Shown here one piece after another: positions 5,530 through 52,921 of a DNA stretch of 64,000 bases. Source of the DNA: an uncultured Candidatus Saccharibacteria bacterium (GTDB taxonomy: Bacteria; Patescibacteriota; Minisyncoccia; Minisyncoccales; Staskawiczbacteraceae); the NCBI GenBank assembly GCA_964356545.1, contig CAYHHX010000001.1, positions 1,918-65,917 on the forward strand, in the 5' to 3' direction. Both the position numbers and the translations under genes were made by a program. The notes beneath the pieces are model-generated. The model was not told the origin of the DNA, did no database searches, and saw only the letters and a list, made by a program, of their open reading frames with translations. Numbering within the stretch: the first letter of the stretch is position 1; every line of letters starts with the position of its first letter.

Positions 5530-5559
5530 AAATTTAAAGATTAATTAAGAAATAAAAAT

Positions 5560-6608: not shown

Positions 6609-6618
6609 ATTCACATCT

Positions 6619-6647: not shown

Positions 6648-6797
6648 AAGTAGTAGTTAAGAATAGCACTTTTACAACATAAATTACTTGCAAGAAAACA
6701 GTCATAGCCAAAAGCTATTAAGAAATTGATAGTTTTTGGCTATGACTGCCAACTTCGGAAGTCAAGCACACACTTTTTTCAAGAAAAGGATGACGCC

Positions 6798-7040: not shown

Positions 7041-7064
7041 GCAGCGCTCAATGCCACTGGTTGT

Positions 7065-7412
7065 GTGCAGTACATCGACCGTAAGGTCGTGGACAGCATG
7101 CCACGCGGCGAAGGCAAAGAAGTCGAAGTCGTATTCTTCAACCTCGGCCGATACATCAGCGACGCCGACCTCGACAAGGAGTACGAACTGCTTGGTTTCA
7201 AACCAGCAGATCCCTACTCTTTGTCCGCAGTCAACGAAGAAGATCAGGCATTTGCCGACACCAAGCCCAACGCCACTCATTGGAAGGACGAGAATGGCAA
7301 GTTGTGTTATGCCGCCTTCGACCGGTGGTTCGGCGTCGAGCGGTACGTGCGTGTCCGCCGCTTCGGCATTGGCTGGCGTGGCCACTGGTGGTTTGCTGGC
7401 GTCAGCAAGTAA
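7065..7412 (+). CDS. Hypothetical acidic protein, same frame as 6798..7040. The two may be one gene interrupted by, or reading through, the amber codon.
   Basis: Sense-looking G+C-rich ORF ('...DENGKLCYAAFDRWFGVERYVRVRRFGIGWRGHWWF'). Starts are GTG 7065 or ATG 7098. Followed by a perfect intrinsic terminator. Confidence 0.4.
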   Translation: MQYIDRKVVDSMPRGEGKEVEVVFFNLGRYISDADLDKEYELLGFKPADPYSLSAVNEEDQAFADTKPNATHWKDENGKLCYAAFDRWFGVERYVRVRRFGIGWRGHWWFAGVSK

Positions 7413-7488
7413 TCTTCAGGTCGTTCAGACTCTGAGAGTCTTCAGACTCGAAGAGTTGCCCTTGGTTTCTTGAACCTTCGGCAACAAA

Positions 7489-7528
7489 GTCCTGTTTTGC
7501 AATTGCAAAACAGGACTTCTTTTTTTTG
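7489..7528 (+). terminator. Rho-independent terminator closing the G+C-rich island.
   Basis: 'agtcctgttttgcaa|ttgcaaaacaggact' is a 15-bp perfect stem followed by T8. Confidence 0.75.
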
Positions 7529-7701
7529 TTTCAATATGATAATATAATAATCGGATAGTAGGCTATTATCAAGTCTGCGGTCAAGGCTTCAGACAACCCA
7601 ATTCCATATTTCAGGATTGTGTAGATCGGCCTCCTAAAACATGGCAACACAAAGAAGATTAAAGGTGTGGTCTTAAAATTATACAGTCAAAACTTTATTG
7701 C

Positions 7702-7730
7702 TTGACAAAGGTGTTTTTAATTAGTACTAT
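7702..7730 (+). promoter_or_regulatory. Promoter of rnpB.
   Basis: TTGACA (7702-7707), 17-nt spacer, TACTAT (7725-7730). The inferred TSS coincides with the P1 helix start. Confidence 0.5.
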
Positions 7731-7736
7731 ATAAAT

Positions 7737-8184
7737 ATCTTAACAAGATGAGTGATTGCTCTTTATTAAATTGAGGAGAGGAAAGTCCGAACACCATCCT
7801 GAACTGATTTATCAGTGAAGGATAAAATAGTAGTGGCTAACAGCCATCCATAGTAATATGCGAGGTGCGAACAGTGACGCCGAGTTTCGAAAGAAACAAG
7901 GCACCGAGTATATAAATTTATTTATGTGCGAGGTGAATTCAACTGAAAAGTTGAAGTGAAACGGCTAAATCCTTATTGGGTGCAAGAACAAAGTCCCGCC
8001 CCCTAAGCAGTTAATTTTTATCAGGAAAAACCTGAGAGAGCTCTAATAGATATATTTTTTTGAGTTCTTGAATTACAGCATAGGGGGCGGGATTAAAAGT
8101 AGTTCGCTTGAATCAAGAAGTAATTCTTGGTCTAGACAGATAATCACATAAAACAGAATTCGGCTTACGGTCTTGTTAAGATAA
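7737..8184 (+). ncRNA. rnpB: RNase P RNA, bacterial type A.
   Basis: P4 strands 'GAGGAAAGTCCGaACac' (~7783) and 'ACAGAAttCGGCTTAcGG' (~8153). The P1 helix is formed by 7737-7748 'atcttaacaaga' pairing with 8171-8182 'tcttgttaagat'. Confidence 0.85.
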
Positions 8185-12866: not shown

Positions 12867-12937
12867 TTTTTTTAGTTGATTTTATCTATTTTTATGTTAG
12901 AATGATAAGACAGGGGTGAGGATTCACCCCATATACA

Positions 12938-13006
12938 GCGCCTTGGAGGAGTAGTACCTCGGCAGTCTCATAAGCTGCAGGCCCCCGTGCAATTCGGGGA
13001 GGCGCA
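12938..13006 (+). pseudogene. Degenerate tRNA-like element (CAU anticodon loop) immediately upstream of tRNA-Met. It may be a decayed tRNA.
   Basis: 7-bp acceptor pairing gcgcctt/gaggcgc, D-stem gagg/cctc and anticodon loop 'cuCAUaa'. It is only 69 nt, the T-loop is 'tgcaatt' (no TTC), and the stems are imperfect. Confidence 0.3.
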
Positions 13007-13027
13007 ACATTAAGGGTTATGGGATTA

Positions 13028-13100
13028 GCCGGGGTAGTTCAGTGGTTAGAACGCAGCACTCATAACGCTGAAGTCGTGGGTTCGATTCCCACCCTCGGCA
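13028..13100 (+). tRNA. tRNA-Met (anticodon CAU). Elongator or tRNA-Ile2 type, not initiator.
   Basis: Cloverleaf: acceptor GCCGGGG/CCUCGGC, T-arm GUGGG-UUCGAUU-CCCAC, anticodon loop cuCAUaa. G1-C72 is paired, so it is not an initiator. Confidence 0.85.
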
Positions 13101-13122
13101 CAAATTTGATAGATTTAATTTT

Positions 13123-13198
13123 GCGGGTGTAGTTCAGCCTGGTTTAGAATATTCCCCTGTCACGGGAAAGATCACGGGTTCAAATCCCGTCACCCGCG
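13123..13198 (+). tRNA. tRNA-Asp (anticodon GUC).
   Basis: Acceptor GCGGGUG/CACCCGC, anticodon stem-loop uuccc-cuGUCac-gggaa, T-arm CGGG-UUCAAAU-CCCG, discriminator G. Confidence 0.85.
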
Positions 13199-13386
13199 CA
13201 AATTCCAGTTCGTTTATTTTTCCCTCGTAAAGTAGGTTCCAATATTTTATAGGACTATAGTACATTAGAGCCTTTTATCCCTAAAAAGCGTTTTTAGTTG
13301 CATTTTTGTTATAAAATAGGCAGAATAGAATAATGTGTTTTAAGATTAGTTTTATGATATAATTTCTTAAAACAAGAAAATAAAAT

Positions 13387-15288: not shown

Positions 15289-15354
15289 TGCCCCCCCAAC
15301 AAATTAACTTTATTTTGAAATATTATTTAATAATCAATATAATCAAAGTTGAGT

Positions 15355-18300
15355 ATGAATAAAATAAAAAACAATTTTCATAAAAATAAATTAGCATTCA
15401 GTAAAAAAGTGACGGCATATTTATTGATTGCATTATTTTTCTATTTTCCCTTAGAGTCGGTTTTTGCAGAAGAAAATATATCAGAAAATATAAACAAAGA
15501 AGAAACTTCGGCAAGCCAACTAGTCGATTCCGAAAAAAATAATCAAGAGAAACCTCTAGCAGAAAAAAATATTATCGGGGATACTAAAAATAATATTCAA
15601 CAAAAAGGTGAGCGTAAAAATAACGAGAAAGAAGATAATACAGACAAAAAAGAACGCAACAAGAAAAAGAAAAATGATTCGGATGATGAAGAATTAATCC
15701 AAGCGCAAGCTGCGGGTTCATCTTCAGGTTCATCTAATAATAATCAGTTTGCGTTTAACCCGGCCGCAAAGATAATGATGCCAGAAGCCGATACCACCAC
15801 CGGCGCGCTGGTGTATTCTTATCCTATCGAAGTGCCGTCGGGCAGAAATGGCATGGCTCCGAAAGTTTCACTGTATTATAATTCTCAGAAAAATGACAAT
15901 GCTTCAATAGTAGGATTTGGCTGGGATTTGGACATTCCCAAAATAGAAAGGGTTAACAAGCACGGAGTTAATAAATTATATGATTACCAAGATTTCCAAT
16001 CTTCGCTTTCCGGCGAGTTGGTGAATGTTTCCGGAAATGATTATGGCGCAAAAATAGAAAATGGTTCTTTTCTGAAATACCAATTAAATAATGAGATATG
16101 GACTACCACGGATAAAAAAGGCACTATTTACAAGTTTGGAAGTTCTAACTCATCAAAAATTTATAATTTATCAGATACAAGCAAAATTTACTCTTGGTAC
16201 TTAGATGAAATTATAGACACTAATGGAAATTTCATAAAATATACTTATATAAAAGATAATACTGATAATTTTTTGTACCCTGATAAAATAATTTATACAG
16301 GCAACGGAGAACTATCGGGGATTTTTTCAGTTGAATTTAAAAAAGAATCCAGGCCGGATTCCTATACAATCAATAACGCCGGTTTTTATCAAAAAATAGA
16401 TGAAAGAATTAATTCCATAGAAACATATATAGCCGGTAATTTAAACAGAAAGTATGATTTAACATACGGAATGGGAGACAACGGGAAGCGTTCTATGTTA
16501 GAAAAAATAACTGAAAGCGGGAGAGACAATCTTGGCATTACCGCCACCTTGCCATCTTTTGACATTGCCTATACCGAAGGAAATATTGGCTTGGCAGATG
16601 CTCCGTCAATCAGTTATCCGTGGGTTACAGAAACCGATTCAAATGGAAATTCTTATACAACGCCTTTTACATTAGCCGATCAATCTATCAGGATCATAGA
16701 TATAAACGGCGATGGGTTAAAAGATATTGTTAAGTCGTCTGTTGCCTACGGGCAATGGGGAGCTATGTATCCAAATTTTTGGGTTTTAAAAAATAATGGG
16801 TCAGGGTGGGTAGTGGATAATTCATGGAGTCAACCAACATATTCTTATGTTAACGGTAGCGGAAGAACAATAAGCGAATATTTTACTTTTTCAAACGCAA
16901 TTGACGTTGGAGATTGGAATGGCGACGGCAAAGATGATTTGATTAAATTTTGGGTTGAAAATTTAGGCGGCGGAGCAAATAAACAACATGCAGTTGTTTT
17001 GTTAAATACTGGTGCAGGTTGGACACAAAATACAAATATAGAAACAGATACGCCGACCTATATGAGTTATAATGCCGGTATACAGAATTTATACCTTTAC
17101 TCTGGCTCAAGTGGCTCTAGTCGTTTCATTGATCTTAATGGCGATGGATTGATTGACTGTATCAATGCTTGGAACCATCAAATAAATGGCATTAATTATC
17201 CATCTTTTGCAGTATTATATAACGATGGTGAAGATTTAAAATGGGATCCTACAGTGCTTCAACTATATTTTAAGAATAGTCCAACTTCAGCAAGTAGTCC
17301 GCTTGCGTTAACTAACAGCATAAAAATATTAGATATTAACGGCGACGGACTTGTTGATTTTATGTCCGCTCATAATTACCAAATAAACGGTATTGATAAC
17401 CCATCATTTTGGGTGCTAATAAACAATGGGCATGGCTGGGACCAGGATTTTGGTATAACACATCCCCGATACACTGCTCTTGATGTGAATGATAACCTAC
17501 AAACAAATTACTTTAGCAGCACTTCGGGGTGGCAAGTTGTTGATATAAACGCAGACAATTTACCTGATTTTATTATATTTGCGCCACTTAATAGCGGAGG
17601 CGGAACATATAAAAAAAGGAAAACAGTTTTAATAAATACTGGCAAGGGATGGATCCAAGATGACAGTTTGATTAATATTGGGGACTATTCGTATACATAT
17701 AACGGCAGCACACAAACTAATTATCCTAGTTCCAGCGATGCCGGCAGCGCTTTTCTTGATATTAACGGCGATGGGTTGGTTGATATTGCTCACCCATCTT
17801 TTTATCAGCAACAGGGAATTTACTATACTATTAATTGGACGCTTATAGGAAGCGGTAAAATTGCCAACACTTTGTCAAAGATAACATTACCTGAAGGTGG
17901 CTCTTATGACATTGCATATAAAATGACAAGCGCATATAGGGATGTTTTGGGAAATTTACTGAATAGTAGTTTACTATTAGCATATAATACGGTTGAAAAA
18001 ATAATTCAAAATGATGGCAATGGCATAACGCATATTGCAAATTACAAATATGAGGGAGGACATTTTTTCTATGGTAGTGCTTTTAATAAGCGTTTTGCGG
18101 GATTTAGTATAATTTACAAAAACGATTTTGCGGGCAATACAACCAAAACTTATTATCATACAGCCAATCAAAGCGATTCTAATTACGGAGAATTTCAAGA
18201 CGAATATTGGAAAATTGGTAAAGCATATAGTATAGAACAATATGATAATGCAAACCACTTATATACTAAAACTATAAACAAATGGGACAGTTTTGATTTA

Positions 18301-21300
18301 GGTGGTGGTTCAAAGTTTTTAAAGTTAGCTCAAACCGTAAATTATAATTTTGATGGCGATGCCACTCATCGAGATACAGCTGAAGGTTATACTTACGACA
18401 ATTCCAATGGTAATGTCACCCAGAAAGTTCAATGGGGCGAAGTGTCGGGGCAAGACAATGGAACATTTACTGATACTGGATCTGACAAATTTACCACTGA
18501 CTACGCTTATGCCTCCAATGCAAGCTTATCTATTGTTGGATTGCCATCAAAAGAAACGATAACAGATCAAAACTCGTTGAAGGTAAAGGAAAGCAAGTTT
18601 TATTACGATCTGCAGGCCTTAGGTAGTATTATTCAAGGGAACCTTACCAAAAAAGAGGATTGGAAAGTTGGTACTGCTTATATTAATAACCAAACAACTT
18701 ATAACAGCTACGGCTTGGCAACCGTTTCAACAGATCCGCGAGGCAAAACCACCAAGTATGTGTATGATGCTCATAATCTCTATCCTGCCACAGTAACCAA
18801 TGCCAAAAATCAATCCACTAACTATTTGTATAACTATGCTTTAGGGAAAATGACCCAGAAGACCGATCCAAGTAAAAGGGTATTTCAGTATGTCTACGAT
18901 GGATTGGGGCGTCTCATTGAAGAAAAACAACCGGATATTGCAACACCTTCAACATTAATAACAAAGGCAATCTATGTGTATACCGACACTCCAAACGCAG
19001 TAAGTGTTAAAAAATCCAGTTATTTGGACGCATTAAATTTTGCAGAATCATACACGTATTTTGATGGTTTAGGCAGAAAAATTCAGGAAAGGCAGGAGGC
19101 CGAGGGTACAGTTTTTGCCGTAAAAGATTATATCTACAATAATTTGGGTCTGATTACAAAAGAATCTCTACCTTATTTTTCAGCAAATTTGTCTAAGACT
19201 TCGCCAACCATTGATTCTGCGCTCTATATCAATTACAAATATGATGCCCTGGGCCGTGTAGTTTCTGTAACCAATGCAGTTGGCACTACCACAAATATGT
19301 ACAATGATTGGAAGCTTACGGTAATCGATGTAGGTGGTAAGTCTAAAGATTTATATAAAAATGCTTATGGCAGTTTAGTGCAGGTTGATGAGCATAACTC
19401 CCTTGATACATATAGCACATTGTATAACTACAACTATTTAGGAAACATTACTAAGATTACTGATGCGCTTTCTAATATCCGTAAATTTACTTATGATGGT
19501 TTGGGCCGTAGGTTAACCGCAGAAGATTTGCATGTATCATCAGATACAAGTTATGGTATCTGGACATATACCTATGACAATGCAGGTAACTTGACCCAAA
19601 CACTAGATCCAAATGGCCAAAAAGTAATCTACACTTACGACAACCTTAATCGTGTTCTCAAAGAGGACTATATTGGCGTTACTGGTACAGAGGCTACCTA
19701 TGCCTATGATGCTGGAACAGACGGCATTGGTAAATTAACCAATGTTATTAATAGCTCAATTACTAAAAACTATACCTACAATGCTTTGGGTTTATTGAAA
19801 AAAGAAACAGATAAGTTTGGCCTTACTATCTACATCACGACATATAGTTACGATAGGCAAGGCAACCAGACTACAGTTACCAATCCAGATAATTCTAAGG
19901 TGCAATATATTTACAACACAGCAGGCTTGCTTGACCAGGTCAAACGCAAGGAATCCATTGATAGCGCGTTTGTTAGTGTTGTCAATAATTTTGATTATTC
20001 TCCCGAGGGCAAAGTTACTATTCAGGAAAACTATAACGGAACAACGAACACTAATACGTATGATGTTGCCAAGCTCTACCGATTAACTAGTAAAGTTGCC
20101 ACCACTGCTAACGGAGACCGCATCCAGGATTTAAGCTACACATATGATTTAGTAGGTAATATCACTAAAATTGTAGATGCGTCCACCACTGCAACCGCCA
20201 AAACTTCCGACTACACATATGATGACCTCTATCGTTTAACCTCTGTAACTGTAACAGGCGTTGCTGTTGGCCAAGAGCCATACATTCAAACGTATAGTTA
20301 TGATGCAATAGGAAATATCATTACAAAATCGGATGTTGTTGGATCTTATATATATGACGGTACTATCTACGCCAATCCCCATGCAGTCACTATCATTGGT
20401 TCTGCAACTTTTTCGTACGATAACAATGGCAATCTGTTAAACTCTACCAGCGGTTTTATTAATACATGGGACTATAAGAATCGTTTAATACAATCAGTCA
20501 AAGAAACAATAACAAACAGCTACGGATATGATGCCGAAGGCCAAAGAGTAAAATTAATTACCGCCGATAAAAACACTTATTATCCAACTAAATCCTATAA
20601 CATTACTTTTCTAAATTCTGATACCCAAAACCCAACATCTATTACAAAGCACATCTTTGCAAACAGCATAGACATTGCTACAATAGAAGGCACAGGGGCA
20701 ACTTCTCAAATCTACTACGCATCCAAGGATTTACTGAACAGCTCTAGCATCATAACCGACAGTGTTGGCGTAATTGCTGAGACTATGGATTACTTCCCAT
20801 TCGGCGGAATCAGAATAGACCAAAAAGTCACTGGCAGCTCTTTCTCGGAACAACGTAAATTCATCGGCCAGGAATACGACCAAGACACAGGCCTAAACTA
20901 TCTTAATGCGAGATACTACAACGCAACTATTGGAAGGTTCATTTCCCAAGACCCAATGTTTTGGCAACTGCCAAATGAGCTACTCGCCGACCCGCAACAA
21001 TTGAATTCCTATTCCTACGCCCGCAATAACCCGATAATAGGTAGTGACCCGAGCGGGTTATTAACCGTCATTGTTCCTGGAACCAGCTATAATTCAAAAG
21101 ATTGGTCGTCTTCTGGCTCGATGTCAAATTTTATCTCTTCAGTTGGCAAGACCTTCAATGAAACACATCAAACAAGTGTGATAAACGATAAAAGTAATTG
21201 GTCGGGTGGCGATAATTCTAATGCTCGTCAAAAAGCAGCAGAACATATCACAGGGTTTATAAAAGACTATAAGTTTGCTGATGGAGAACAGTTAAACATT

Positions 21301-21729
21301 GTTGGACATAGCCATGGCGGAAATATTGGAATTCTTGTTAGTCAAAAAACAGAAAGAAAAATAGATAATCTTGTAACTCTTGGTACTCCAGCTAGAAGCG
21401 ATTACCAACCAAATTATGATATGGTGGGACGTCACATAAATGCATACAGTAATGTAGATATGATACAGGGAGGCGGAGGTGGACAAACAAATTTATCTGC
21501 AGTGCTTCTTGGGACTGTTGGTAATGCTTTTGGTATTCCTGGAGCAATTATTGGATATGCGCTTGGTAATATATTAGGCTGGGGAGAATTTGGTTCTGCC
21601 GGTAGAAAATTTAGTGGAGCGGAAAACATTAGTGTAACTAAAGAAGCTGGTCGTTTTAGTCCCTTTAGTTCTCATTCTAATTTATTGCAAAGTAGCGTTT
21701 GGTCAAGGGTTGATAAATTAATTAAGTAG
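15355..21729 (+). CDS. Giant secreted polymorphic toxin: signal peptide, SpvB-like domain, FG-GAP/VCBS-like repeats, RHS/YD repeats, RHS core (DPxGL), and a C-terminal alpha/beta-hydrolase (lipase/esterase-like) toxin domain.
   Basis: Signal peptide 'KKVTAYLLIALFFYFPLESVFA'. SpvB-like 'GMAPKVSLYYNSQ...IVGFGWDLDIPKIER'. Repeated 'DINGDGLxD' / 'DWNGDGKDD' motifs. Numerous YD repeats ('YTYDxxGNL', 'YxYDxLxRL'). RHS core 'RYYNATIGRFISQDP...NSYSYARNNPIIGSDPSGLL'. The C-terminus carries 'IVGHSHGGNI' (a GHSxG nucleophile elbow). ATG 15355 is preferred over the TTG at 15349. Confidence 0.85.
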   Translation: MNKIKNNFHKNKLAFSKKVTAYLLIALFFYFPLESVFAEENISENINKEETSASQLVDSEKNNQEKPLAEKNIIGDTKNNIQQKGERKNNEKEDNTDKKERNKKKKNDSDDEELIQAQAAGSSSGSSNNNQFAFNPAAKIMMPEADTTTGALVYSYPIEVPSGRNGMAPKVSLYYNSQKNDNASIVGFGWDLDIPKIERVNKHGVNKLYDYQDFQSSLSGELVNVSGNDYGAKIENGSFLKYQLNNEIWTTTDKKGTIYKFGSSNSSKIYNLSDTSKIYSWYLDEIIDTNGNFIKYTYIKDNTDNFLYPDKIIYTGNGELSGIFSVEFKKESRPDSYTINNAGFYQKIDERINSIETYIAGNLNRKYDLTYGMGDNGKRSMLEKITESGRDNLGITATLPSFDIAYTEGNIGLADAPSISYPWVTETDSNGNSYTTPFTLADQSIRIIDINGDGLKDIVKSSVAYGQWGAMYPNFWVLKNNGSGWVVDNSWSQPTYSYVNGSGRTISEYFTFSNAIDVGDWNGDGKDDLIKFWVENLGGGANKQHAVVLLNTGAGWTQNTNIETDTPTYMSYNAGIQNLYLYSGSSGSSRFIDLNGDGLIDCINAWNHQINGINYPSFAVLYNDGEDLKWDPTVLQLYFKNSPTSASSPLALTNSIKILDINGDGLVDFMSAHNYQINGIDNPSFWVLINNGHGWDQDFGITHPRYTALDVNDNLQTNYFSSTSGWQVVDINADNLPDFIIFAPLNSGGGTYKKRKTVLINTGKGWIQDDSLINIGDYSYTYNGSTQTNYPSSSDAGSAFLDINGDGLVDIAHPSFYQQQGIYYTINWTLIGSGKIANTLSKITLPEGGSYDIAYKMTSAYRDVLGNLLNSSLLLAYNTVEKIIQNDGNGITHIANYKYEGGHFFYGSAFNKRFAGFSIIYKNDFAGNTTKTYYHTANQSDSNYGEFQDEYWKIGKAYSIEQYDNANHLYTKTINKWDSFDLGGGSKFLKLAQTVNYNFDGDATHRDTAEGYTYDNSNGNVTQKVQWGEVSGQDNGTFTDTGSDKFTTDYAYASNASLSIVGLPSKETITDQNSLKVKESKFYYDLQALGSIIQGNLTKKEDWKVGTAYINNQTTYNSYGLATVSTDPRGKTTKYVYDAHNLYPATVTNAKNQSTNYLYNYALGKMTQKTDPSKRVFQYVYDGLGRLIEEKQPDIATPSTLITKAIYVYTDTPNAVSVKKSSYLDALNFAESYTYFDGLGRKIQERQEAEGTVFAVKDYIYNNLGLITKESLPYFSANLSKTSPTIDSALYINYKYDALGRVVSVTNAVGTTTNMYNDWKLTVIDVGGKSKDLYKNAYGSLVQVDEHNSLDTYSTLYNYNYLGNITKITDALSNIRKFTYDGLGRRLTAEDLHVSSDTSYGIWTYTYDNAGNLTQTLDPNGQKVIYTYDNLNRVLKEDYIGVTGTEATYAYDAGTDGIGKLTNVINSSITKNYTYNALGLLKKETDKFGLTIYITTYSYDRQGNQTTVTNPDNSKVQYIYNTAGLLDQVKRKESIDSAFVSVVNNFDYSPEGKVTIQENYNGTTNTNTYDVAKLYRLTSKVATTANGDRIQDLSYTYDLVGNITKIVDASTTATAKTSDYTYDDLYRLTSVTVTGVAVGQEPYIQTYSYDAIGNIITKSDVVGSYIYDGTIYANPHAVTIIGSATFSYDNNGNLLNSTSGFINTWDYKNRLIQSVKETITNSYGYDAEGQRVKLITADKNTYYPTKSYNITFLNSDTQNPTSITKHIFANSIDIATIEGTGATSQIYYASKDLLNSSSIITDSVGVIAETMDYFPFGGIRIDQKVTGSSFSEQRKFIGQEYDQDTGLNYLNARYYNATIGRFISQDPMFWQLPNELLADPQQLNSYSYARNNPIIGSDPSGLLTVIVPGTSYNSKDWSSSGSMSNFISSVGKTFNETHQTSVINDKSNWSGGDNSNARQKAAEHITGFIKDYKFADGEQLNIVGHSHGGNIGILVSQKTERKIDNLVTLGTPARSDYQPNYDMVGRHINAYSNVDMIQGGGGGQTNLSAVLLGTVGNAFGIPGAIIGYALGNILGWGEFGSAGRKFSGAENISVTKEAGRFSPFSSHSNLLQSSVWSRVDKLIK

Positions 21730-44545: not shown

Positions 44546-44620
44546 AAATTATGCATTTTGGAGAACATTTAACAATCGATGGATACGGTGGTAACTTTGA
44601 AAAGCTAAATGATGAAGAAT
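44546..44620 (+). pseudogene. 5' fragment of a pyruvoyl-dependent S-adenosylmethionine decarboxylase-like gene (speH/speD-like), truncated by a REP.
   Basis: 'MHFGEHLTIDGYGGNFEKLNDEE' matches the AdoMetDC N-terminus pattern G-x-H-L-x-x-D/E-x-Y-G-C/G-x-F-x-K-L-N-D. The frame then runs into the REP at 44617-44650. Confidence 0.45.
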
Positions 44621-44650
44621 GGTGGCTGTCCCCATTGTCCCTCCCATTAC
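44617..44650. repeat. REP element (reverse orientation).
   Basis: 'gaatggtggctgtccccattgtccctcccattac'. Confidence 0.6.
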
Positions 44651-44698
44651 TCATTACTGCAGAGGTCAGCCGTATTGCATTATAAGAAAAATCATGGC

Positions 44699-45484
44699 AT
44701 GGTATTGATGGAAGAGATTCATGTTGAGTTTCTCAAACAGCACATTAAAAAAATAAAAAGGATAAGACGTGTATCCAATTTACAATTTGCGCAAAGGAGA
44801 ACTGTTATGCGTAAAATCGAAGGTTTGAAATTTCTTCAGAGATTTTTTCCGGACCAATGCGTTGACTGTATATTCGTAACTGATAAAGAGCCTATTATTT
44901 TAAATGATCTCGAGAAACATGCTTCTTCGCTTTTCCGAGTACGATCAAGTCGAAGGAATGGGTCCGACATCAATGCTCCAAGTAAAACCTGTCACTCGGT
45001 AAAAGAGGTTGTAAAATTCGTAGAAGATTTACGAAGTTTAAAACAATCTTGGGAGTTTGTAATTCACCGTGTAGATAAAGCGTACTTTACACCAAGTTTT
45101 ATTGGCACAATAGCGCTTTTCTATAAGGTAGAACCTCAAATCATGATTGATCTGCAATATGTGCCAAGTAGGGACGCACAAGCAATTGCCAATGGAGCAT
45201 ATCATGGTCAGCCACCGCGAGATTGGAAAGTGGCTGCTATGTACACTTTTCCTTTCTTTGGGCGACAACCTTGGATACGGATTATCGATCCATTATTTCA
45301 ATTAAGTGCGGTGAGTGAGTTTATCCCACGTTTATGGCGTATCGGTCGCGAAATTGATGATGTGAAGCAGTCTTTAGATGATCGATCATCAGCAGCTTTA
45401 CCAGAATCAGTAACGCGTTTCAATCTTTATTCAGATGGATCAATTTTGCTTGACGATCATCGTAACGTGAGTTCGTTCATCTAG
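44699..45484 (+). CDS. Hypothetical protein.
   Basis: Long sense ORF. The annotated ORF start at 44609 lies inside the REP, so a later Met (44699 or 44708) is more plausible. No motif recognised. Confidence 0.35.
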   Translation: MVLMEEIHVEFLKQHIKKIKRIRRVSNLQFAQRRTVMRKIEGLKFLQRFFPDQCVDCIFVTDKEPIILNDLEKHASSLFRVRSSRRNGSDINAPSKTCHSVKEVVKFVEDLRSLKQSWEFVIHRVDKAYFTPSFIGTIALFYKVEPQIMIDLQYVPSRDAQAIANGAYHGQPPRDWKVAAMYTFPFFGRQPWIRIIDPLFQLSAVSEFIPRLWRIGREIDDVKQSLDDRSSAALPESVTRFNLYSDGSILLDDHRNVSSFI

Positions 45485-45581
45485 CATTAATACCGGTGTG
45501 CTATAAGATAGTATGCCGGTTTTCTTTGTATATTAAATTTGATACTATAAAAGATATAAAAAGTTAAATTATTTTAAAAAT

Positions 45582-46094
45582 ATGAATGTTATAAAAGTAA
45601 TTAGGGATGAGGATTTTGGTTTGGATAATCCAGTCCCAAAGAATTATAAGGAGCGCAAAGCAAGTCGTTCCATTGTTTTTGATGAGAATAGACATGTTGC
45701 TTTACTTCATGTAACAAAAAAGAATTATCATAAACTACCTGGTGGAGGCATGGAAAAAGGGGAAGAAATTTCTGAAACACTTGAGAGAGAATTATTTGAA
45801 GAAATCGGATGTTCCGTAAAAGATGTTCGAGAGCTTGGTATCATTGAAGAGTATCGTAATAAACTGGAACTTCATCAAATTTCCTACTGTTTTTTAGCTA
45901 ATCTTATCGGAGATAAGGGAACTCCACACTTTAAAGATGATGAAATAGATGATGGTTTTAAAATAACATGGATGGATATACGGGATGCGATTAGAACATT
46001 AGAAAGTGAAATAAATACCAGAGATTATAGGGATAAATTTATATGCTTACGAGACCTCATATTACTAAAAGAGGCAGTAAAAGTTTACAAGTAA
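45582..46094 (+). CDS. NUDIX hydrolase.
   Basis: Nudix box 'GGGMEKGEEISETLERELFEEIGC'. Confidence 0.75.
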   Translation: MNVIKVIRDEDFGLDNPVPKNYKERKASRSIVFDENRHVALLHVTKKNYHKLPGGGMEKGEEISETLERELFEEIGCSVKDVRELGIIEEYRNKLELHQISYCFLANLIGDKGTPHFKDDEIDDGFKITWMDIRDAIRTLESEINTRDYRDKFICLRDLILLKEAVKVYK

Positions 46095-46167: not shown

Positions 46168-47130
46168 ATGGAAAATACTGAAAAGAAATTCTCCATCGCT
46201 GGCGCCAATTTCAAAATTAAATCAAATTTTGAAATAGAAAGCTTGTTGTACGAACCGCAACCATACAATTTACATATCAACTATTTAATTAAAGACAAAG
46301 TTAAAAAGAGAGACATTTTCACTATCGTTATTCTTAGAAATAACAAGAACTTAAGTCTCCATGTAAAGGGTAGAAACCTTACCATTAGTGGCAAGATAGA
46401 CGCTATGTTTGAACGCGAATACAATCCTCAATTCGGACTTTTTGGTAATAAGGGGATAATACATCACTTTATTCTACATACTCTTGAAAACTATTTGAAA
46501 TTCAGCTTTTTGCATGCATCGGCGATACTTCATCCACACAGAAAAAAAATATGTATTGCACTTGGTCCAAGTGGTTCTGGTAAAAGCGTCTTTGTTTCAA
46601 ATGCCCTAAAAATAGGTTGGAAACTAATTGCAACTGAACAAGTTATAATTAGTGCTGACGGAGAAATATTTAAGGGAAATCAGTATGATAATATTTCACC
46701 AAAAGCAGTTGATTTTATAGAATCACAGCTAGACAGGGCAGTTGTCTTTAAAGAAAAACAACTGATTGAACCCACTGGTCAAAAATTACTTGCAAATCTC
46801 TCAGAATACGGGATCAGCGTAAATAAACTTTTACTACAAGGTTACGAACTTAACCTTGTAGTCCTTAATTTTGGTAATCTTTCTCATAAAAATGGTACAC
46901 CTATTATTGATGAAGATTTTTTACTAAGAGTTATGCAATACAGTTCAAGTGAAAAGATATGTGCTCCTATAATTTTTGATAAAAATATATTTAAACTTAA
47001 TATGAATGGGAATTCAAAAAATAGAACAACTACGGTTAATTTAATTATTGGTAAGGCAAATAAAAAAATCGTTCTTGGTGGTAATTATACGGATTTTGAG
47101 AGATGGTTACAGTACGAATATTTAAATTAA
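46168..47130 (+). CDS. HprK C-terminal-domain-like P-loop protein.
   Basis: 'LHASAILHPHRKKICIALGPSGSGKSVFVSNALKIGWKLIATEQVIISADGEI' resembles the HPr kinase C-terminal domain P-loop and flanking region. Very A+T-rich, K/N/I-rich. Confidence 0.4.
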   Translation: MENTEKKFSIAGANFKIKSNFEIESLLYEPQPYNLHINYLIKDKVKKRDIFTIVILRNNKNLSLHVKGRNLTISGKIDAMFEREYNPQFGLFGNKGIIHHFILHTLENYLKFSFLHASAILHPHRKKICIALGPSGSGKSVFVSNALKIGWKLIATEQVIISADGEIFKGNQYDNISPKAVDFIESQLDRAVVFKEKQLIEPTGQKLLANLSEYGISVNKLLLQGYELNLVVLNFGNLSHKNGTPIIDEDFLLRVMQYSSSEKICAPIIFDKNIFKLNMNGNSKNRTTTVNLIIGKANKKIVLGGNYTDFERWLQYEYLN

Positions 47131-47170: not shown

Positions 47171-47581
47171 ATGGAAAAACTAAAACAAGCAAGGTGGGCA
47201 AATTTTGATGAAATAACATCTCGCATTATTTCATTCGAAGGCAAACAACCTATTCAAATGAAGCATAGCGATGGTACAGCATTGCCACTACTAGTAGACG
47301 ATTCAAAAACTAATAAATTTGGAGCAGATATTATTAGGTTTGCGCCAGGAGAAGGTGTTGGACTTCATAAGCATATTGGTGCGCACATTCTTATGGTAAC
47401 AAAAGGCAGTGGTATACTTGTGTATGAGGACGAAAGACACTCTATGTTCGAAGGGATGATTTATTTAGTTCCATCAAATATTGCTCATGCAATTGAGGCG
47501 ACAACAGAGATAGTACTGGTAGCAATTGGCAATGACTATAGACCAGCTAATAGTGAAGAGCGTCTCAATATTGTAGGCTAA
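47171..47581 (+). CDS. Cupin-domain protein.
   Basis: 'PGEGVGLHKHIGAHILMVTKGSGILVYEDE...LVPSNIAHAIE' is the cupin_2 two-motif pattern (G-x5-HxH...G...H). Confidence 0.65.
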   Translation: MEKLKQARWANFDEITSRIISFEGKQPIQMKHSDGTALPLLVDDSKTNKFGADIIRFAPGEGVGLHKHIGAHILMVTKGSGILVYEDERHSMFEGMIYLVPSNIAHAIEATTEIVLVAIGNDYRPANSEERLNIVG

Positions 47582-47597
47582 TTAATGTGACAAGAAT

Positions 47598-48974
47598 ATG
47601 ATTTTTAACCTTGAACTTTTTAAACAACATTTACAAGATGCGGAAGTTATCATGTTTAAAAATGAAATTAGGGGATCTTTGACATACTTGCAATATGGGA
47701 TGGAAGTTAGAAATAAAATATACTCACTGGCCATGGATATGCTAAGAGATGATGAATTTAAGGAAATTAAATTGTCGGATATTATAAGAAAATCAGATGT
47801 CGTAAAACTCGATTCGATTTCTTTAATATCGGAAAATTATTTTTCCATTATTGAAAATAACTTTAATATGGCGGCGGGGCACGAAATACCGTTTTATTTG
47901 TTTTTAAAGAAATATTTAAAACTTTTTCGTCCTGTTGTTTTTCCTATTAAATTTTTTAATTTTGGATCAGTTTTCAGATTTCCAAAGAAGACAAAGTTCC
48001 CTTTCAACTTAGGAGAGCGGAGGTCCTTTTTAGAATGCTTTATAGTTTACAAAAACGAAAAAAGTAAAGAAAAGTATATTAATTGGGCAGTTGAGTGGAA
48101 TAGACAATTAATAAAAGAAAAATTACATTTACCGTCAATTGAGGTCGAACGTCCTTTGATAACTAACAAATCTTTTTCTCGTAAAACTATTTGTATAGAT
48201 TCGTTGACTCCTATAGGTATAAGCGTTATTACGGGAATGTCCTACTTTCACGATGATATATTTACAAAGTTATTAGAAATAAAATATAAACACAATCTTA
48301 CCGGTAAAAGTAAATTATTTCATGCCATGCATTTTGGAATTAGTGATAACTTATTTTTTTCCTATCTGATTAATTGTCATGACGGAAGAGGGTTTCGTAT
48401 GCTTAATAATATTGCTCCACTTCATATTGAAATCATAATAAGCGATGATGTGAAACCCAAACCCTTTGAATTGGAGTTGATTACTAAATATCTTGATGAA
48501 AAAAAGTATCGGTATAATGTAGAATATGCGAAGAAACTGCAAAAACCGCGTTTTTATATCAAAAAAAATATCATAAATGGTACACCCCTCACCATTATTT
48601 TTTCACATTATAATAGTAGTAGTATGACTTTATTTTATAGAGGAGATTTCGCTACTCAAGAATTTAAGATAAACGACTTGTATCTTATTGATGATTTTTT
48701 GAAGAAAAATGACGAAGAAATTATTTGTCATTTTAAAATAATAGAAGCTGAAACTATAGTTGAATGTGATACGATTGAAGATGTAAACAGATCGCTCTTG
48801 GATGGAAAAGTGTGCAAAATTTACTTAAAAAATAATGATAATAATATTCAAAACTGGAATCAAAAATTATTGCTTGTCCATGTGCTTGGTTTTTGCATTA
48901 GTAAAAATAGTGGTTACGACATCTTAACAGGAGATTCTGTCTTTACATTAGCTTATATCTCAAAAAGGTCATAA
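47598..48974 (+). CDS. Class II aminoacyl-tRNA-synthetase-like paralog (catalytic-core-like, no obvious anticodon-binding domain), otherwise hypothetical.
   Basis: 'FGSVFRFPKKTKFPFNLGERRSFLECFIVY' resembles class IIa aaRS motif 2 (G-x-x-F-R-N-E-x7-L-x-R-V-R-E-F-x-x-x-E...F), with Pro in place of the canonical Glu. Extremely A+T-rich gene. Confidence 0.35.
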   Translation: MIFNLELFKQHLQDAEVIMFKNEIRGSLTYLQYGMEVRNKIYSLAMDMLRDDEFKEIKLSDIIRKSDVVKLDSISLISENYFSIIENNFNMAAGHEIPFYLFLKKYLKLFRPVVFPIKFFNFGSVFRFPKKTKFPFNLGERRSFLECFIVYKNEKSKEKYINWAVEWNRQLIKEKLHLPSIEVERPLITNKSFSRKTICIDSLTPIGISVITGMSYFHDDIFTKLLEIKYKHNLTGKSKLFHAMHFGISDNLFFSYLINCHDGRGFRMLNNIAPLHIEIIISDDVKPKPFELELITKYLDEKKYRYNVEYAKKLQKPRFYIKKNIINGTPLTIIFSHYNSSSMTLFYRGDFATQEFKINDLYLIDDFLKKNDEEIICHFKIIEAETIVECDTIEDVNRSLLDGKVCKIYLKNNDNNIQNWNQKLLLVHVLGFCISKNSGYDILTGDSVFTLAYISKRS

Positions 48975-49641: not shown

Positions 49642-50670
49642 ATGAAGTACAATAACCATCTGAATCCGATGAGTGTGAGAGAGTTTTATTCCGATTCTGC
49701 TATGCCACTTTTTTACCAGGAGTGGGCTAATAACTCTGGTAAAGAACCTTTGAGTTCCAAAAAAGTCAGAATTGCTATTACCGAAAAGTGTAACTTCGCG
49801 TGTCCATTTTGTTATAACGAAGGAATGTCTAATATTTCAAAGATATTGAGCGTAGGAGATATTAGGTTAATTGCCGAGGCAATATCTCCTTACGTTTCAG
49901 GATTAAAGATTGTTGGTGGTGAGCCTTTGTTACATCCTCAGTTTGGCGAGGTTGTTGAGCTCTGTTCTAAAACTTGTTCAACAACTGTCACTACTAATGG
50001 GTTTTTCCTTGACCGATGGACTAAGTATTTGGAGAGACTTACTGGAATAACGGTAAGTATCCAATCGCTCAACCCAGAAATCTATCGGTCCTTAATGGGT
50101 ACTCGCTTTGGACCAGAAGTAGTATTAAGGCAGATATCCCTATTTACAGAAAAAACAGAGATACCAGTTTCTGTAAATTGCGTTTTGACAAATGAAAATT
50201 CTCCCTCGATTTTAAATTTCATCGAGGAAATAGTATCTTGTGGCGCCAATGCTGTAAATTTGTTGGGACTCCTTTGTATTACAGACAAGGACAAAGAGGG
50301 GTATTATCCCCTTACATCCATTGTTGCTATTCTGACCGACAAGTATGGTCAGCCCGAAGTTGTTTCAAGTACGAGATTGAGATTTAGAATAAAAGAAAGC
50401 GTCCACACAGATGTTGTATACCAATTCTGTATGGTGGGCTGTGGTGTTTGTCGAACCGACGGATTTATTCGATTCGATCCAACGCCTGCTATTTCTTACT
50501 GCCTAGCGTCAGGTCCCATATCGATAAAGGAGGAAATTGATTCGAAAGATCCCTTAAAAATTCGTCAGTTGTTTTTAAGGGCTGTAAACCAGATGGGTCA
50601 ACCAACTGGTTATAAATACCAGGTTGTCTCCAGGAGACCAGACTCCAAGGGGATATACTCCTTATTGTAA
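49642..50670 (+). CDS. Radical SAM enzyme with a C-terminal Cys-rich (twitch/SPASM-like) region.
   Basis: 'ITEKCNFACPFCYNEG' (CX3CX2C) and a second cluster 'QFCMVGCGVCRTDG'. Strong SD 'aaagggagg' precedes the ATG. Putative promoter TTGACA ~49527. Confidence 0.7.
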   Translation: MKYNNHLNPMSVREFYSDSAMPLFYQEWANNSGKEPLSSKKVRIAITEKCNFACPFCYNEGMSNISKILSVGDIRLIAEAISPYVSGLKIVGGEPLLHPQFGEVVELCSKTCSTTVTTNGFFLDRWTKYLERLTGITVSIQSLNPEIYRSLMGTRFGPEVVLRQISLFTEKTEIPVSVNCVLTNENSPSILNFIEEIVSCGANAVNLLGLLCITDKDKEGYYPLTSIVAILTDKYGQPEVVSSTRLRFRIKESVHTDVVYQFCMVGCGVCRTDGFIRFDPTPAISYCLASGPISIKEEIDSKDPLKIRQLFLRAVNQMGQPTGYKYQVVSRRPDSKGIYSLL

Positions 50671-50839
50671 AGTACACGAGGGGTGCATACATCTGCATCC
50701 CTTTTTCTTTATTATTTTTCTAGATAGTTATAAAATATATATCTTTATGTAGGGGTGGTAGAGGGATTACTAATTTGGGTGCAACCAAATTATTTAAAGG
50801 TTCAACTCCTTTCCCCTACTCTGCCATTTTTTAATAAAA

Positions 50840-52219
50840 ATGAGAAAAATAACTAATAAATCTGAATTCAAAAAAGAATATCAAAAACAGTGTCTTTTCT
50901 TTGGTAAAAATTTAAAAGTTAAAGGTTTTATTAATACTAATATAATAAAAGTAATTGGTAGTAATTTAGAAATATATAAACAGATATTGTCTCAAGAAAA
51001 AAAGCCCATAAAACTAAAGTATATTTATGATAGAATAGAGAATTATAATAATTACTTAAAATTTTTAAGGAACGTATCAGAAAAAAATATCACAAAACCA
51101 CCTCTTGCTCTTTATTCATCCACTGCAAACCTAATTAATAATGGAAATTATGATCTTAGAATTAATTATGTATTAAATATATTTAATACAAATCACCACT
51201 TCTTATTTATTTTTTTAGAAGAGCCTATTTTTCATTCCGATAAAGATTTTAAAATAACAATCGTAAAAGAAAAATTAACAATAGATTTTAAAAGACATAA
51301 ATTTTTAGAAATAAAAAACAATATTTCTTATTGGGACAGAAAAATAAAAAGAGATATTGGGTCGTATATAGAAAATTTATCATTTAAAAATAAAGAATGG
51401 CTCAAAGAAAGATATTTTACGATTTTTGACTTTATTTTTAAATTAATTTTAGATTCTAATTCATATGAAGAACTATCAAAAAAAGTAGCAATTGACTGTT
51501 TGTTAATAGAAGGTTTCCAAGGAGTAATATTAAATCAATTAGATTTGATTGATCTACTAAAAAATAGAGTAGACTTCAGAGAATTATTTAATAATAAAGA
51601 CATTGAAATAGATATAATAAAATGCTGTGTTTGCGATAAACAGCACATAGGTCCATTTAAAAGAAATCTATCCGAAGGAATTTCGTGTGGCGATTTAAAC
51701 TGGTCTATTATATCTAATTCAAAAATAAGATTTAAAAAAGCTCTATTACCCTTTGTAGTATTATTTTACTTGAATATTATACCCGTATTATCTGATCATA
51801 ATTATTCAGAAAAAATCAAGAAATTTGAATCGACGAATAAATTAGATAAAGAAAATATTTGGTTTGCCTTACGCAAAATAAAATTCATATCTCTTTTCAA
51901 AGAATCAATGACATATATTAATATTTTAGCCGAGGGAGTAAATAAAGATATATATAAGCATATTAAAAATTGGAATAATCAAAAAGCAATTATTATTGGC
52001 AATCAAAGCTTTTATAAATTGAAAAACAAACAAGCTGATTTTATTTCCTTAAATAAATCGAATTTTTCTAAAAATATATTGAATATTATAAAAAAGAGAG
52101 AAGAGTTAAGGGTACTCAAAAAGTGGCATGAGGCTGATGCACTGAAAATAAAGCTTATATACTTAGGGATTGATTTTATTGAATCTGGAGGTAAGACTTT
52201 AGTTAGGGAAATTGGCTAA
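50840..52219 (+). CDS. Hypothetical protein (very A+T-rich, N/K/I-rich).
   Basis: 459-aa ORF with no recognisable motif. Composition is even more A+T-rich than the window average. Confidence 0.35.
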   Translation: MRKITNKSEFKKEYQKQCLFFGKNLKVKGFINTNIIKVIGSNLEIYKQILSQEKKPIKLKYIYDRIENYNNYLKFLRNVSEKNITKPPLALYSSTANLINNGNYDLRINYVLNIFNTNHHFLFIFLEEPIFHSDKDFKITIVKEKLTIDFKRHKFLEIKNNISYWDRKIKRDIGSYIENLSFKNKEWLKERYFTIFDFIFKLILDSNSYEELSKKVAIDCLLIEGFQGVILNQLDLIDLLKNRVDFRELFNNKDIEIDIIKCCVCDKQHIGPFKRNLSEGISCGDLNWSIISNSKIRFKKALLPFVVLFYLNIIPVLSDHNYSEKIKKFESTNKLDKENIWFALRKIKFISLFKESMTYINILAEGVNKDIYKHIKNWNNQKAIIIGNQSFYKLKNKQADFISLNKSNFSKNILNIIKKREELRVLKKWHEADALKIKLIYLGIDFIESGGKTLVREIG

Positions 52220-52246: not shown

Positions 52247-52921
52247 ATGAATAATCCGCTCAAAGCTATCGTATTATTCTTTGAAGGAGAAATTTCAAGA
52301 ATAGAGAAAATAAAAAAAATCAAAAAGAGAAGCAATAAATTTGTGGTTCTCTGTGGTCCAAGTGGAAGTGGCAAAAATATGATAATAAAACATCTTATTG
52401 ATCATTACGATTTCAGGGGACTTCCTTCTTTAACCACAAGATCGTTACGAAAGGGTGATGGTGAGCTTGAGATATTGTCTATGGGCAGGGATGAATTTAT
52501 GGAAAGGGAGCTCGATGGTAAAATATTTTTACCTGTACATAATTATGGTAACTTATATGGGTATGATATAAATACAGTATTAAATAGCATTATTCAGAAA
52601 AGTAGTATTGTTATTGAATCTCCTACAGCCAACTTAACGACAGATGTGGCGTATTTCTTACCTGAAGCCATGGTAATAGGAATAATACCATCAACTACTA
52701 ATGAGTTAGAACATCAATTGAATCTTCGGGGACTAAATGAAAAAAGAGACAAAAGGATACGATTATTAAATACAGAAATTGAAAAAGAACATATTATGGG
52801 TGCTTCAGAATTAATGGAAATTAATCAAGTAGTTCCTATTCCCGGGGTACCACAAGATACGCTTTCTCAAATTGACAGACTAATGGAAGAAAAAGGATTT
52901 AAAAAGAAAATAGCAGAATAA
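52247..52921 (+). CDS. gmk: Guanylate kinase-like P-loop kinase.
   Basis: 'VVLCGPSGSGKNMI', 'SLTTRSLRKGDGE' (compare Gmk 'SxTTRxPRxGExxG') and 'GNLYGYDINTV'. Confidence 0.5.
   Translation: MNNPLKAIVLFFEGEISRIEKIKKIKKRSNKFVVLCGPSGSGKNMIIKHLIDHYDFRGLPSLTTRSLRKGDGELEILSMGRDEFMERELDGKIFLPVHNYGNLYGYDINTVLNSIIQKSSIVIESPTANLTTDVAYFLPEAMVIGIIPSTTNELEHQLNLRGLNEKRDKRIRLLNTEIEKEHIMGASELMEINQVVPIPGVPQDTLSQIDRLMEEKGFKKKIAE

Follow-up and report, generated by a model that had tools for sequence, protein, structure and literature searches.

Duplicated aminoacyl-tRNA synthetases (aaRSs) have repeatedly been found to perform unexpected chemistry or signalling. A 2022 review of such duplications lists asparagine synthetase A, PoxA and amino acid:carrier-protein ligases among the paralogs, with the carrier-protein ligases falling under AlaRS and SerRS, and its only paralog of prolyl-tRNA synthetase (ProRS) is ProRSx, which derives from bacterial ProRS and ligates proline to a dedicated tRNA of its own, tRNAProA (PMC9437257). 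A further case is Gcn2's HisRS-like domain, in which the synthetase architecture is retained and the ATP contacts as well as the anticodon-specific contacts are lost (PMC11363354). Hydrazine synthetases, finally, combine a zinc cupin with a MetRS-like enzyme, sometimes as two stand-alone proteins, with a non-tRNA acceptor used by the aaRS-like part (PMC8664883, PMC12376268). Here, we analyze a gene located on a 64,000-nucleotide (nt) stretch of DNA from an uncultured Candidatus Saccharibacteria bacterium (assembly GCA_964356545.1, contig CAYHHX010000001.1, positions 1,918 to 65,917 of the forward strand; in the following, the window), whose product we refer to as the ProRS-like protein. Its study exposed a large, coherent ProRS-derived superfamily with diagnostic active-site changes, the recurrent partners of which are SSF-type transporters, a private P-loop family, a four-histidine cupin and canonical aaRS genes.

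The ProRS-like protein is a full-length, remodelled paralog of E-type ProRS

A first-pass annotation of the window had taken the gene product for an orphan protein with a peptide resembling motif 2 of class IIa aaRSs. This peptide (residues 122-151) turned out to be a genuine motif 2 within a class IIa synthetase fold, as indicated by phmmer, NCBIfam and Foldseek alike; the resemblance stems from homology and goes far beyond a chance match. Among PDB sequences, phmmer matched the protein to the ProRSs of M. jannaschii (1nj8; E=1e-11, residues 6-379) and M. thermautotrophicus (1nj1; E=3e-9). Within NCBIfam, the protein aligned to TIGR00408 (proS_fam_I), the model for proline--tRNA ligase of the archaeal/eukaryote type (E-type), over profile positions 11-431 of 475 (E=2.4e-21), although its 76.2 bits remained below the curated equivalog cutoff of 437 bits, which was exceeded by two canonical controls, namely P0078 (521 bits) and a ProRS encoded beside a ProRS-like gene on an archaeal contig (L034; 483 bits). 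A Pfam scan returned zero matches above threshold.

An AlphaFold2 (AF2) model built from a 27-sequence family alignment (pLDDT 89.5, pTM 0.91) was compared with solved structures by Foldseek, with 1nj1 (E=7e-36, TM-score 0.86) and 3ial (TM-score 0.89) among the matches. The superposition on E-type ProRSs extended over the full length of the protein (about 480 columns, 15-17% identity, TM-scores of 0.86-0.89). The class II antiparallel beta-sheet catalytic fold, which the annotation had proposed to look for by fold prediction, is thus present, and so is the entire three-domain E-type architecture: the annotation's remark that an anticodon-binding domain was not evident is wrong, as both this domain and the C-terminal one align with their counterparts when the model is laid over full-length E-type ProRS. 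The gene encodes a full-length, strongly remodelled paralog of E-type ProRS that is distinct from the housekeeping ProRS.

The remodelling concerns the active site in particular. In what follows, substitutions are written as canonical residue, window-protein position and family residue; the canonical comparison set consisted of 31 ProRS representatives, and full-length representatives were classed by their catalytic motifs. In class II enzymes, the Glu of the motif-2 R-x-E signature contacts adenine N6, and the loop Arg of motif 2 together with the motif-3 Arg holds the ATP phosphates. Invariant and retained throughout the family are R127 (the motif-2 Arg, singled out for a check at the outset), E96 (the TxE-loop Glu), E140, F144, E146 and G247. 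The Glu of R-x-E, in turn, had correctly been read as Pro in the window protein and is Pro, Asn or Ser across the family (E129P/N/S); the other substitutions at ATP contacts are R137N in the motif-2 loop, Q211I and R251N/H, the motif-3 Arg. On the basis of these class II roles, four canonical ATP contacts (E129, R137, Q211 and R251) are gone in the family: positions of this kind are 94-100% conserved among the canonical representatives, with the motif-3 Arg invariant in all 31, and R127 is the only one that the family keeps. Equivalents of motifs 1 and 3, likewise proposed as a check, were both found in altered form. Motif 1 is present, but its invariant Pro is Ser or Thr in the family (position 60), and motif 3 is recognizable as HFGISDN with its invariant Gly, yet has Asn or His in place of its invariant Arg.

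Within the amino acid pocket, T94G, S95H, H216Y and S/C245H are found across the family; L218H and G219D are further replacements. The pocket and the motif-2 loop form the most conserved regions of the family alignment and include a dense set of invariant polar pocket residues. On the basis of the canonical roles, the residues that would hold the alpha-carboxylate or phosphate (R127) and the alpha-amino group (E96) remain in place. In the anticodon domain, by contrast, positions 309, 320, 325 and 348, presumably the G35/G36 contacts, are 81-97% conserved in canonical ProRS, and no family residue exceeds 30% there. Since these determinants are unconserved, specific recognition of the tRNAPro anticodon, and with it specific tRNAPro charging, appears unlikely. 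The family's C-terminal tail, S455-[RK]-R457-x, stands where E-type ProRS has a conserved terminal Tyr (for the role of the latter, see PMC12152171).

Nor is the protein an orphan. A search of 5.8 billion clustered proteins identified 30 close-relative clusters (36-57% identity), none informatively named, with hosts among Patescibacteria (including one contig labelled Candidatus Moraniibacteriota and one soil 'PAT2' bin), many uncultured Clostridia metagenome-assembled genomes (MAGs) and a cultured Bacteroidota isolate, Pseudoflavitalea rhizosphaerae. An exhaustive profile search over 1.84 billion representatives yielded a tight core at 657-411 bits, beyond which the scores tailed off gradually, and the resulting superfamily comprises at least 86 representatives at 50% identity from bacteria and archaea, concentrated in small-genome, host-dependent lineages.

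Catalytic motifs cleanly split the 31 canonical ProRS representatives from the ProRS-like ones (86 representatives plus the window family). The canonical TxE loop RPTSE is P[TS]GE or x[AT]xHE in the ProRS-like proteins, motif 2 (canonical R-x-E) never keeps its Glu, the segment preceding motif 3 changes from H-x-L-G to Y-x-[QH], and the canonical terminal Tyr gives way to [SAG]-[RK]-R-x. The Arg of motif 3 (canonical G-x-S-x-R) is retained in many ProRS-like branches and lost in that of the window; its loss ('DN' for 'ER') co-occurs with the 'HE' of the TxE loop, a combination confined to the window clade and a sister sub-branch. The N-terminal extensions of longer superfamily members contained no Pfam domain fusions. 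Public labels of members range from 'hypothetical' and 'aminoacyl--tRNA ligase-related protein' to an automatic 'proline--tRNA ligase', and a literature search found no paper describing this large and coherent superfamily, which is apparently undescribed.

Three sister branches adjoin canonical ProRS genes, and the ProRS-like genes are therefore paralogs. On the archaeal contig L034, the ProRS-like gene comes after the canonical ProRS mentioned above, with an SSF symporter gene in between. The order ProRS ... SSF - ProRS-like recurs in L036, where the ProRS has canonical architecture with ProRS-C_1. A Clostridia MAG (L032, positions 5301-8008) carries two tandem bacterial-type ProRS genes without INS domain (432 and 421 aa), both passing the TIGR00409 cutoff, directly upstream of its ProRS-like gene; three ProRS-derived genes hence lie in a row there, and a membrane protein of the F2 type (see below) comes next. 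Two sister-branch metagenome contigs (L038 and L039) are from recoded lineages, as the open reading frames (ORFs) of their ProRS-like genes are uninterrupted only when UGA is read as sense (code 4/25); standard-code gene calls on them are fragmented.

Genomic partners of the ProRS-like gene

Gene neighbourhoods were compared across 27 non-redundant family loci, which group into 14 lineages at 70% identity. The partner most specific to the clade without motif-3 Arg is F1, a P-loop protein (Table 1) whose gene adjoins the ProRS-like gene in 17 of the 27 loci. The F1 family is small (only 50 clusters), unnamed and without Pfam match, and the longest contigs listed for its clusters agree in length with the ones given for ProRS-like clusters. 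An F1 homolog (E=4e-53) is also encoded immediately downstream of sister-branch member P0040, which likewise lacks the motif-3 Arg and is translated with UGA as sense, and none was seen in six sampled superfamily branches retaining this Arg. The Walker A motif (G-x-S-G-S-G-K-S) is invariant among F1 proteins, as are many of their polar residues. The closest fold to the F1 model (pLDDT 95.3) was that of ATP-dependent phosphoenolpyruvate carboxykinase (PEPCK; Foldseek E=5e-10, TM-score of about 0.53). Against TIGR04352 (HprK-related kinase A), the window protein scored 16.1 bits and that of L004 21.5 bits, short of the cutoff of 200, and comparison with PDB sequences gave no match beyond the P-loop. 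The structural model thus supports membership of F1 in the PEPCK/HprK P-loop superfamily at the level of fold.

The second partner, a small cupin with four invariant histidines, is found with the ProRS-like gene in six lineages, and the distant branch L037 has one of 41% identity; identities across all partners, L037 included, range from 41 to 81%. Its nearest solved structure, the structural-genomics-type entry PDB 9ug7 (chain 9ug7_A, 215 aa; E=6e-24), has the same four-His motif and was deposited solely as 'Cupin type-2 domain-containing protein'; a literature search found no publication on it. Knowing the ligand or source of 9ug7 might give a clue to what the module as a whole does.

A third kind of partner is a membrane protein. 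F2, with 8-11 transmembrane segments and distantly related to SSF symporters, recurs in the Clostridia loci and L032, and bona fide SSF genes occupy its place in L015/L020, L034 and L036. In L034, L036 and L015, the transporter gene overlaps the start codon of the ProRS-like gene. Across the 14 lineages (loci L001-L031), the cupin (six lineages) and the SSF/F2 transporter (seven lineages) never co-occur, which suggests that they are two alternative supply routes for one substrate.

A bona fide LeuRS gene adjoins the ProRS-like gene in 16 loci (989 bits versus a leuS cutoff of 548); in Clostridia, the ProRS-like gene, F1, F2 and leuS form an overlapping operon, and in L037, LeuRS is found again, with the cupin and a CysRS-like gene. 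In a Patescibacteria locus (L013, 12466-14463), the adjoining LeuRS is 665 aa long and passes the leuS cutoff (646 versus 548 bits); it gave no match to the LeuRS editing (CP1) domain. Occasional partners comprise peptidase S51, type I asparaginase, Ldh_2/2-hydroxyacid dehydrogenases, PEP-utilizers domains, GTP cyclohydrolase II and CapK-like adenylating enzymes.

Within the window, the NUDIX, F1, cupin and ProRS-like genes are co-directional, with successive gaps of 73, 40 and 16 nt, and a gap of 667 nt follows the ProRS-like gene. A strong terminator-like hairpin upstream of the NUDIX gene separates this apparent unit from unk291, a possible accessory partner.

Table 1 Features of the window and, in the last row, a gene cluster on another locus
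Feature	Coordinates	Strand	Remarks
ProRS-like gene	47598..48974	+	458 aa; E-type ProRS architecture (catalytic core, anticodon-binding domain, C-terminal domain)
TxE-loop equivalent AAGHE (canonical RPTSE)	47871..47885	+	E96 kept; T to G, S to H
Motif 2, residues 122-151	47961..48050	+	R127, E140, F144, E146 invariant; R-x-E Glu is Pro; loop Arg (137) is Asn
Strand before motif 3, GISVITGMSYFHDDIFTK (canonical ..lQ.gT.H.LGq.F)	48216..48269	+	Gln to Ile; pocket His to Tyr216; H218/D219/D220 newly conserved
Motif 3 equivalent HFGISDN	48330..48350	+	G247 kept; class II Arg is Asn251 (family Asn or His)
Class IIa anticodon-binding domain fold	48402..48677	+	About residues 269-360; from AF2 model, Foldseek and residue table
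ProRS C-terminal domain	48678..48971	+	About residues 361-458; ends AYISKRS
F1	46168..47130	+	320 aa; P-loop GPSGSGKS; PEPCK/HprK-type fold
Cupin	47171..47581	+	136 aa; invariant H66, H68, H72, H106
NUDIX hydrolase	45582..46094	+	First gene of the apparent NUDIX-F1-cupin-ProRS-like unit; does not recur as a partner at other loci
unk291	44609..45484	+	Unassigned; C-terminal ~230 residues recur beside the ProRS-like gene in L015/L020
Terminator-like hairpin	45492-45520		After unk291
Radical SAM protein	49642-50670	+
459-aa protein	50840-52219	+	No detectable family
Guanylate-kinase-like P-loop protein	52247-52921	+
tRNA-like gene	50749-50821	+
DUF2693 RNA match	47674-47723	+	Inside the ProRS-like coding sequence
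2126-aa ORF	15349-21729	+
tRNA-Met/tRNA-Met/tRNA-Asp cluster	12937-13199	+
Cluster around the distant-branch ProRS-like gene of L033	L033, 1-17536		MFS transporter, GNATs, two nucleotidyltransferases, cupin, GTP cyclohydrolase II, CapK-like adenylating enzyme, Ldh_2, HpcH aldolase, peptidase S66, full ThrRS, truncated ThrRS-like protein, thymidylate kinase

Other genes of the window were considered as parts of the module and discarded: none of the radical SAM, NUDIX, guanylate-kinase-like, dTMP-kinase-like and ITPase genes recurs in other loci, and they are regarded as local neighbours. The radical SAM protein resembles both MoaA (GTP 3',8-cyclase; 106 bits versus a cutoff of 325) and prokaryotic viperins (PADLOC pVip, E=7.5e-20), and it may form a separate nucleotide-modifying module with the 459-aa and guanylate-kinase-like proteins. 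As for a defence system, PADLOC returned no match for the ProRS-like protein, F1, the cupin or unk291, and this option was dropped.

A tRNA-like gene lies between the radical SAM and 459-aa genes. Its anticodon arm is abnormal (7-bp stem, 6-nt loop GUGCAA; ARAGORN anticodon 'gc'); of the other parts, the acceptor stem pairs perfectly over 7 bp, the D arm is short, with a loop of 5 nt, and the T arm is canonical (UUCAACU). The gene is preceded by a terminator hairpin and followed by a T-run, and folds with a minimum free energy of -24.6 kcal/mol (z=-2.5); it matched no Rfam tRNA model at E<=1. Considered as a candidate substrate of the ProRS-like protein, it was rejected as a dedicated conserved partner, there being no equivalent in the other loci scanned: ARAGORN reported ordinary tRNAs only, and no dedicated tRNA gene, on the 26 other loci. 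No T-box or riboswitch leader was detected by Rfam in nine Clostridia loci or around the window gene, and all-against-all blastn of upstream regions recovered only short blocks abutting the start codon. The weak Rfam match to DUF2693 RNA (24 bits versus a gathering threshold of 81, E=0.29) covers the ends of the model only and is almost certainly due to chance. A long ORF and a cluster of three tRNA genes elsewhere in the window are given in Table 1.

A possible non-translational module and its alternatives

Judged from residue conservation and gene linkage, the ProRS-like protein may constitute the amino acid-binding or -transfer part of a non-translational module, in which F1 would perform a nucleotide-dependent step and the cupin or transporter would supply the substrate; we favour this proposal tentatively, as quite possible though short of probable. 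The protein would still bind an alpha-amino (or imino) acid, because R127, E96 and E146 are kept, and its ligand is probably other than proline itself given the rebuilt pocket (T94G, S95H, H216Y, S/C245H). Canonical formation of an aminoacyl-adenylate would have been abandoned with the loss of the four ATP-holding positions (E129, R137, Q211, R251). Instead, F1 might carry out the nucleotide-dependent step, either by phosphorylating or otherwise activating the substrate or by phosphorylating the ProRS-like protein, whereupon the ProRS-derived scaffold would bind, ligate or transfer the amino acid moiety. Substrate supply would fall to the four-His cupin in Patescibacteria and Bacteroidota and to an SSF-type transporter in Clostridia and other lineages. 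The recurrent linkage to LeuRS and ProRS genes suggests that the output of the module feeds into, or reports on, aminoacylation. A more specific version, which we rate as quite improbable, is a 'split' class II synthetase, whose scaffold without adenylation activity would take a substrate activated by phosphoryl transfer from F1 and couple the amino acid moiety to an acceptor such as a tRNA end, a protein or a metabolite.

Several observations weigh against the proposed module. F1 is missing from the sequenced neighbourhood in L001, L003, L008, L009, L013 and L015, and the class of its substrate is ambiguous, with the modelled structure pointing to small-molecule kinases (PEPCK) and weak sequence matches to HprK-related protein kinases. 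With more than 267 clusters, mostly from Patescibacteria, the cupin family far exceeds the ProRS-like family in size, and a distant cupin occurs in a complete Nomurabacteria genome without a ProRS-like neighbour. The cupin/transporter split, moreover, follows taxonomy (Patescibacteria and Bacteroidota versus Clostridia and others), a confounding that leaves the independence of the two routes uncertain. Finally, conserved Lys residues in the motif-2 loop and the two Arg residues of the tail could rebuild an ATP site, and loss of adenylation is to this extent unproven.

By analogy to Gcn2, the ProRS-like protein might instead be a non-catalytic sensor that detects an amino acid and/or, non-specifically, uncharged tRNA and controls F1, which would act in turn on uptake or on an aaRS such as LeuRS. 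We regard this as unlikely. Like Gcn2's HisRS-like domain (PMC11363354), the protein keeps the catalytic and anticodon-binding architecture and has lost ATP ligands and anticodon-specific residues; it has a dedicated kinase-like partner in F1, with its weak matches to HprK-related kinase A, is linked to transporter and aaRS genes, and carries an invariant Ser455 in its tail that could serve as phospho-site. However, the invariance of R127, E96, E146 and the polar pocket residues is more reminiscent of a working site than of the emptied one of Gcn2, and the fold closest to F1 is that of a metabolite kinase. Somewhat less probable still would be a natural-product enzyme that joins an amino acid to an acceptor, either a (modified) nucleotide or one of hydroxylamine type, yielding an aminoacyl-adenylate mimic or similar toxin, with tailoring by the cupin and with the neighbouring aaRSs as resistant or immunity copies. 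The biosynthetic-looking cluster around the distant-branch gene of L033 (Table 1) and the tandem duplicated ProRS genes of L032 are in line with such a role for distant branches; one member of the L033 cluster belongs to peptidase S66, a Pfam family that includes the microcin C immunity peptidase MccF. Also in line with it are the superfamily-wide loss of the Glu that binds adenine N6, the proximity of MoaA/viperin-like radical SAM, NUDIX and nucleotide-kinase-like genes in the window, and the precedent of a cupin with an aaRS-like enzyme set by hydrazine synthetases (PMC8664883, PMC12376268). Yet none of these window genes recurs in any other locus, and the recurrent partners of the window family are SSF-type importers with no exporters among them. 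At 989 bits, LeuRS has the score of an ordinary housekeeping enzyme, and the hosts include Patescibacteria with genomes of ~1 Mb that are unlikely to carry two LeuRS genes; moreover, the cupin is devoid of the essential Glu ligand of the hydrazine-synthetase cupins and no N-hydroxylase is present.

Two further alternatives would keep the protein within translation. A quality-control factor for tRNAPro, binding mischarged or uncharged tRNAPro in order to hydrolyse it or hand it over, would complement a ProRS without editing domain, and the ProRS-like gene does adjoin canonical ProRS genes without INS editing domain in L032, L034 and L036 and retains full tRNA-synthetase architecture. This is nevertheless highly improbable: the anticodon-binding positions of canonical ProRS are unconserved, no aaRS paralog with deacylase or editing function is listed in the 2022 review (PMC9437257), the aaRS neighbour of the window family is LeuRS rather than ProRS, and the transporter, cupin and kinase partners would be left unexplained. 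Least probable of all is a very fast-evolving housekeeping ProRS of the host. Some superfamily members are auto-annotated as 'proline--tRNA ligase', the domain architecture is complete, proteins of Patescibacteria evolve fast, and no canonical ProRS is encoded inside the 64-kb window. However, with 76 bits the protein falls far short of the 437-bit cutoff, and besides the motif-3 Arg it has lost the pocket His, the terminal Tyr and three further ATP contacts, while the family, a monophyletic one, has members in Patescibacteria, in Clostridia and in a free-living isolate of Bacteroidota. This occurrence and the canonical ProRS genes adjoining sister-branch members together make a housekeeping role very unlikely.

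The first-pass annotation had also pointed out that such paralogs in other bacteria aminoacylate carrier proteins or small molecules rather than tRNA. In so far as the protein is aaRS-derived and unlikely to be an ordinary tRNA synthetase, this holds; the carrier-protein suggestion found no support. Known ligases that load amino acids onto carrier proteins are of SerRS/AlaRS type (PMC9437257), whereas the window protein is derived from ProRS and retains each of its three domains, and no carrier-protein or phosphopantetheinyl transferase Pfam family was found among the called or scanned neighbours at any locus.

Returning to the proposed module, its mechanism, if worked out, would amount either to a new use of the class II fold or to a prokaryotic device for sensing amino acids or tRNA, and would also correct the automatic 'proline--tRNA ligase' annotations. 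Should the split-synthetase version be true, it would represent an aaRS-fold ligase that is driven through an external kinase instead of from an ATP site of its own, and the ProRS-like superfamily would be an unrecognized branch of amino acid chemistry tied to uptake and aaRS genes. The question is directly testable, as one member is found in the cultured P. rhizosphaerae KACC 18655.

Comparison with known systems

Compared with E-type ProRS (TIGR00408; PDB 1nj8, 1nj1, 1h4s, 3ial), the window protein has the same three-domain fold over its whole length and keeps the motif-2 Arg, the TxE-loop Glu, E140, E146 and the motif-3 Gly, as well as G328 and P330 as structural residues of the anticodon domain. 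It differs in the change of RPTSE to AAGHE, in the replacement of four residues, namely the Glu of R-x-E, the loop Arg of motif 2, the Gln preceding motif 3 and the Arg of motif 3, in having Tyr for the pocket His, S-[RK]-R-x for the terminal Tyr and Ser/Thr for the motif-1 Pro, and in its overall identity of 15-17%.

As in hydrazine synthetases, an aaRS-derived protein appears to be paired with a small metal cupin. There, however, the aaRS part is a class I, MetRS-like enzyme, whereas the window protein belongs to class II, and the hydrazine-synthetase cupins carry H-x-H-x3-E...H or D-x-H-x3-E...H with an essential Glu, in contrast to H66-x-H68-x3-H72...H106 in the window cupin. 5UQP was absent from the PDB matches of the latter at E<0.01, and no N-hydroxylase or monooxygenase was found in any locus neighbourhood compared. 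An analogue of hydrazine synthetases was accordingly rejected, given the different cupin ligand set, the partner of another aaRS class and the missing N-hydroxylase.

F1, for its part, resembles the superfamily of HPr kinase/phosphorylase and PEPCK in its Walker A motif, in its match to the PEPCK fold and in its weak matches to HprK-related kinase A; the Walker A signature of HprK is G-x-S-G-x-G-K-S. Unlike PEPCK, F1 has 320 rather than about 530 aa, and it has no Pfam match.

With ProRSx, the window gene shares its origin as a duplicated ProRS and probably also a non-standard role. In contrast to ProRSx, however, the window protein is of E-type, its active site is remodelled, and no dedicated tRNA gene was found in the 26 other loci. 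[quoted passage not shown] Yet Gcn2 is HisRS-derived and fused to a eukaryotic protein kinase, whereas the window protein is ProRS-derived with a separate P-loop partner, and while Gcn2 has lost amino acid binding, the window family keeps the amino acid-contacting Arg and Glu.

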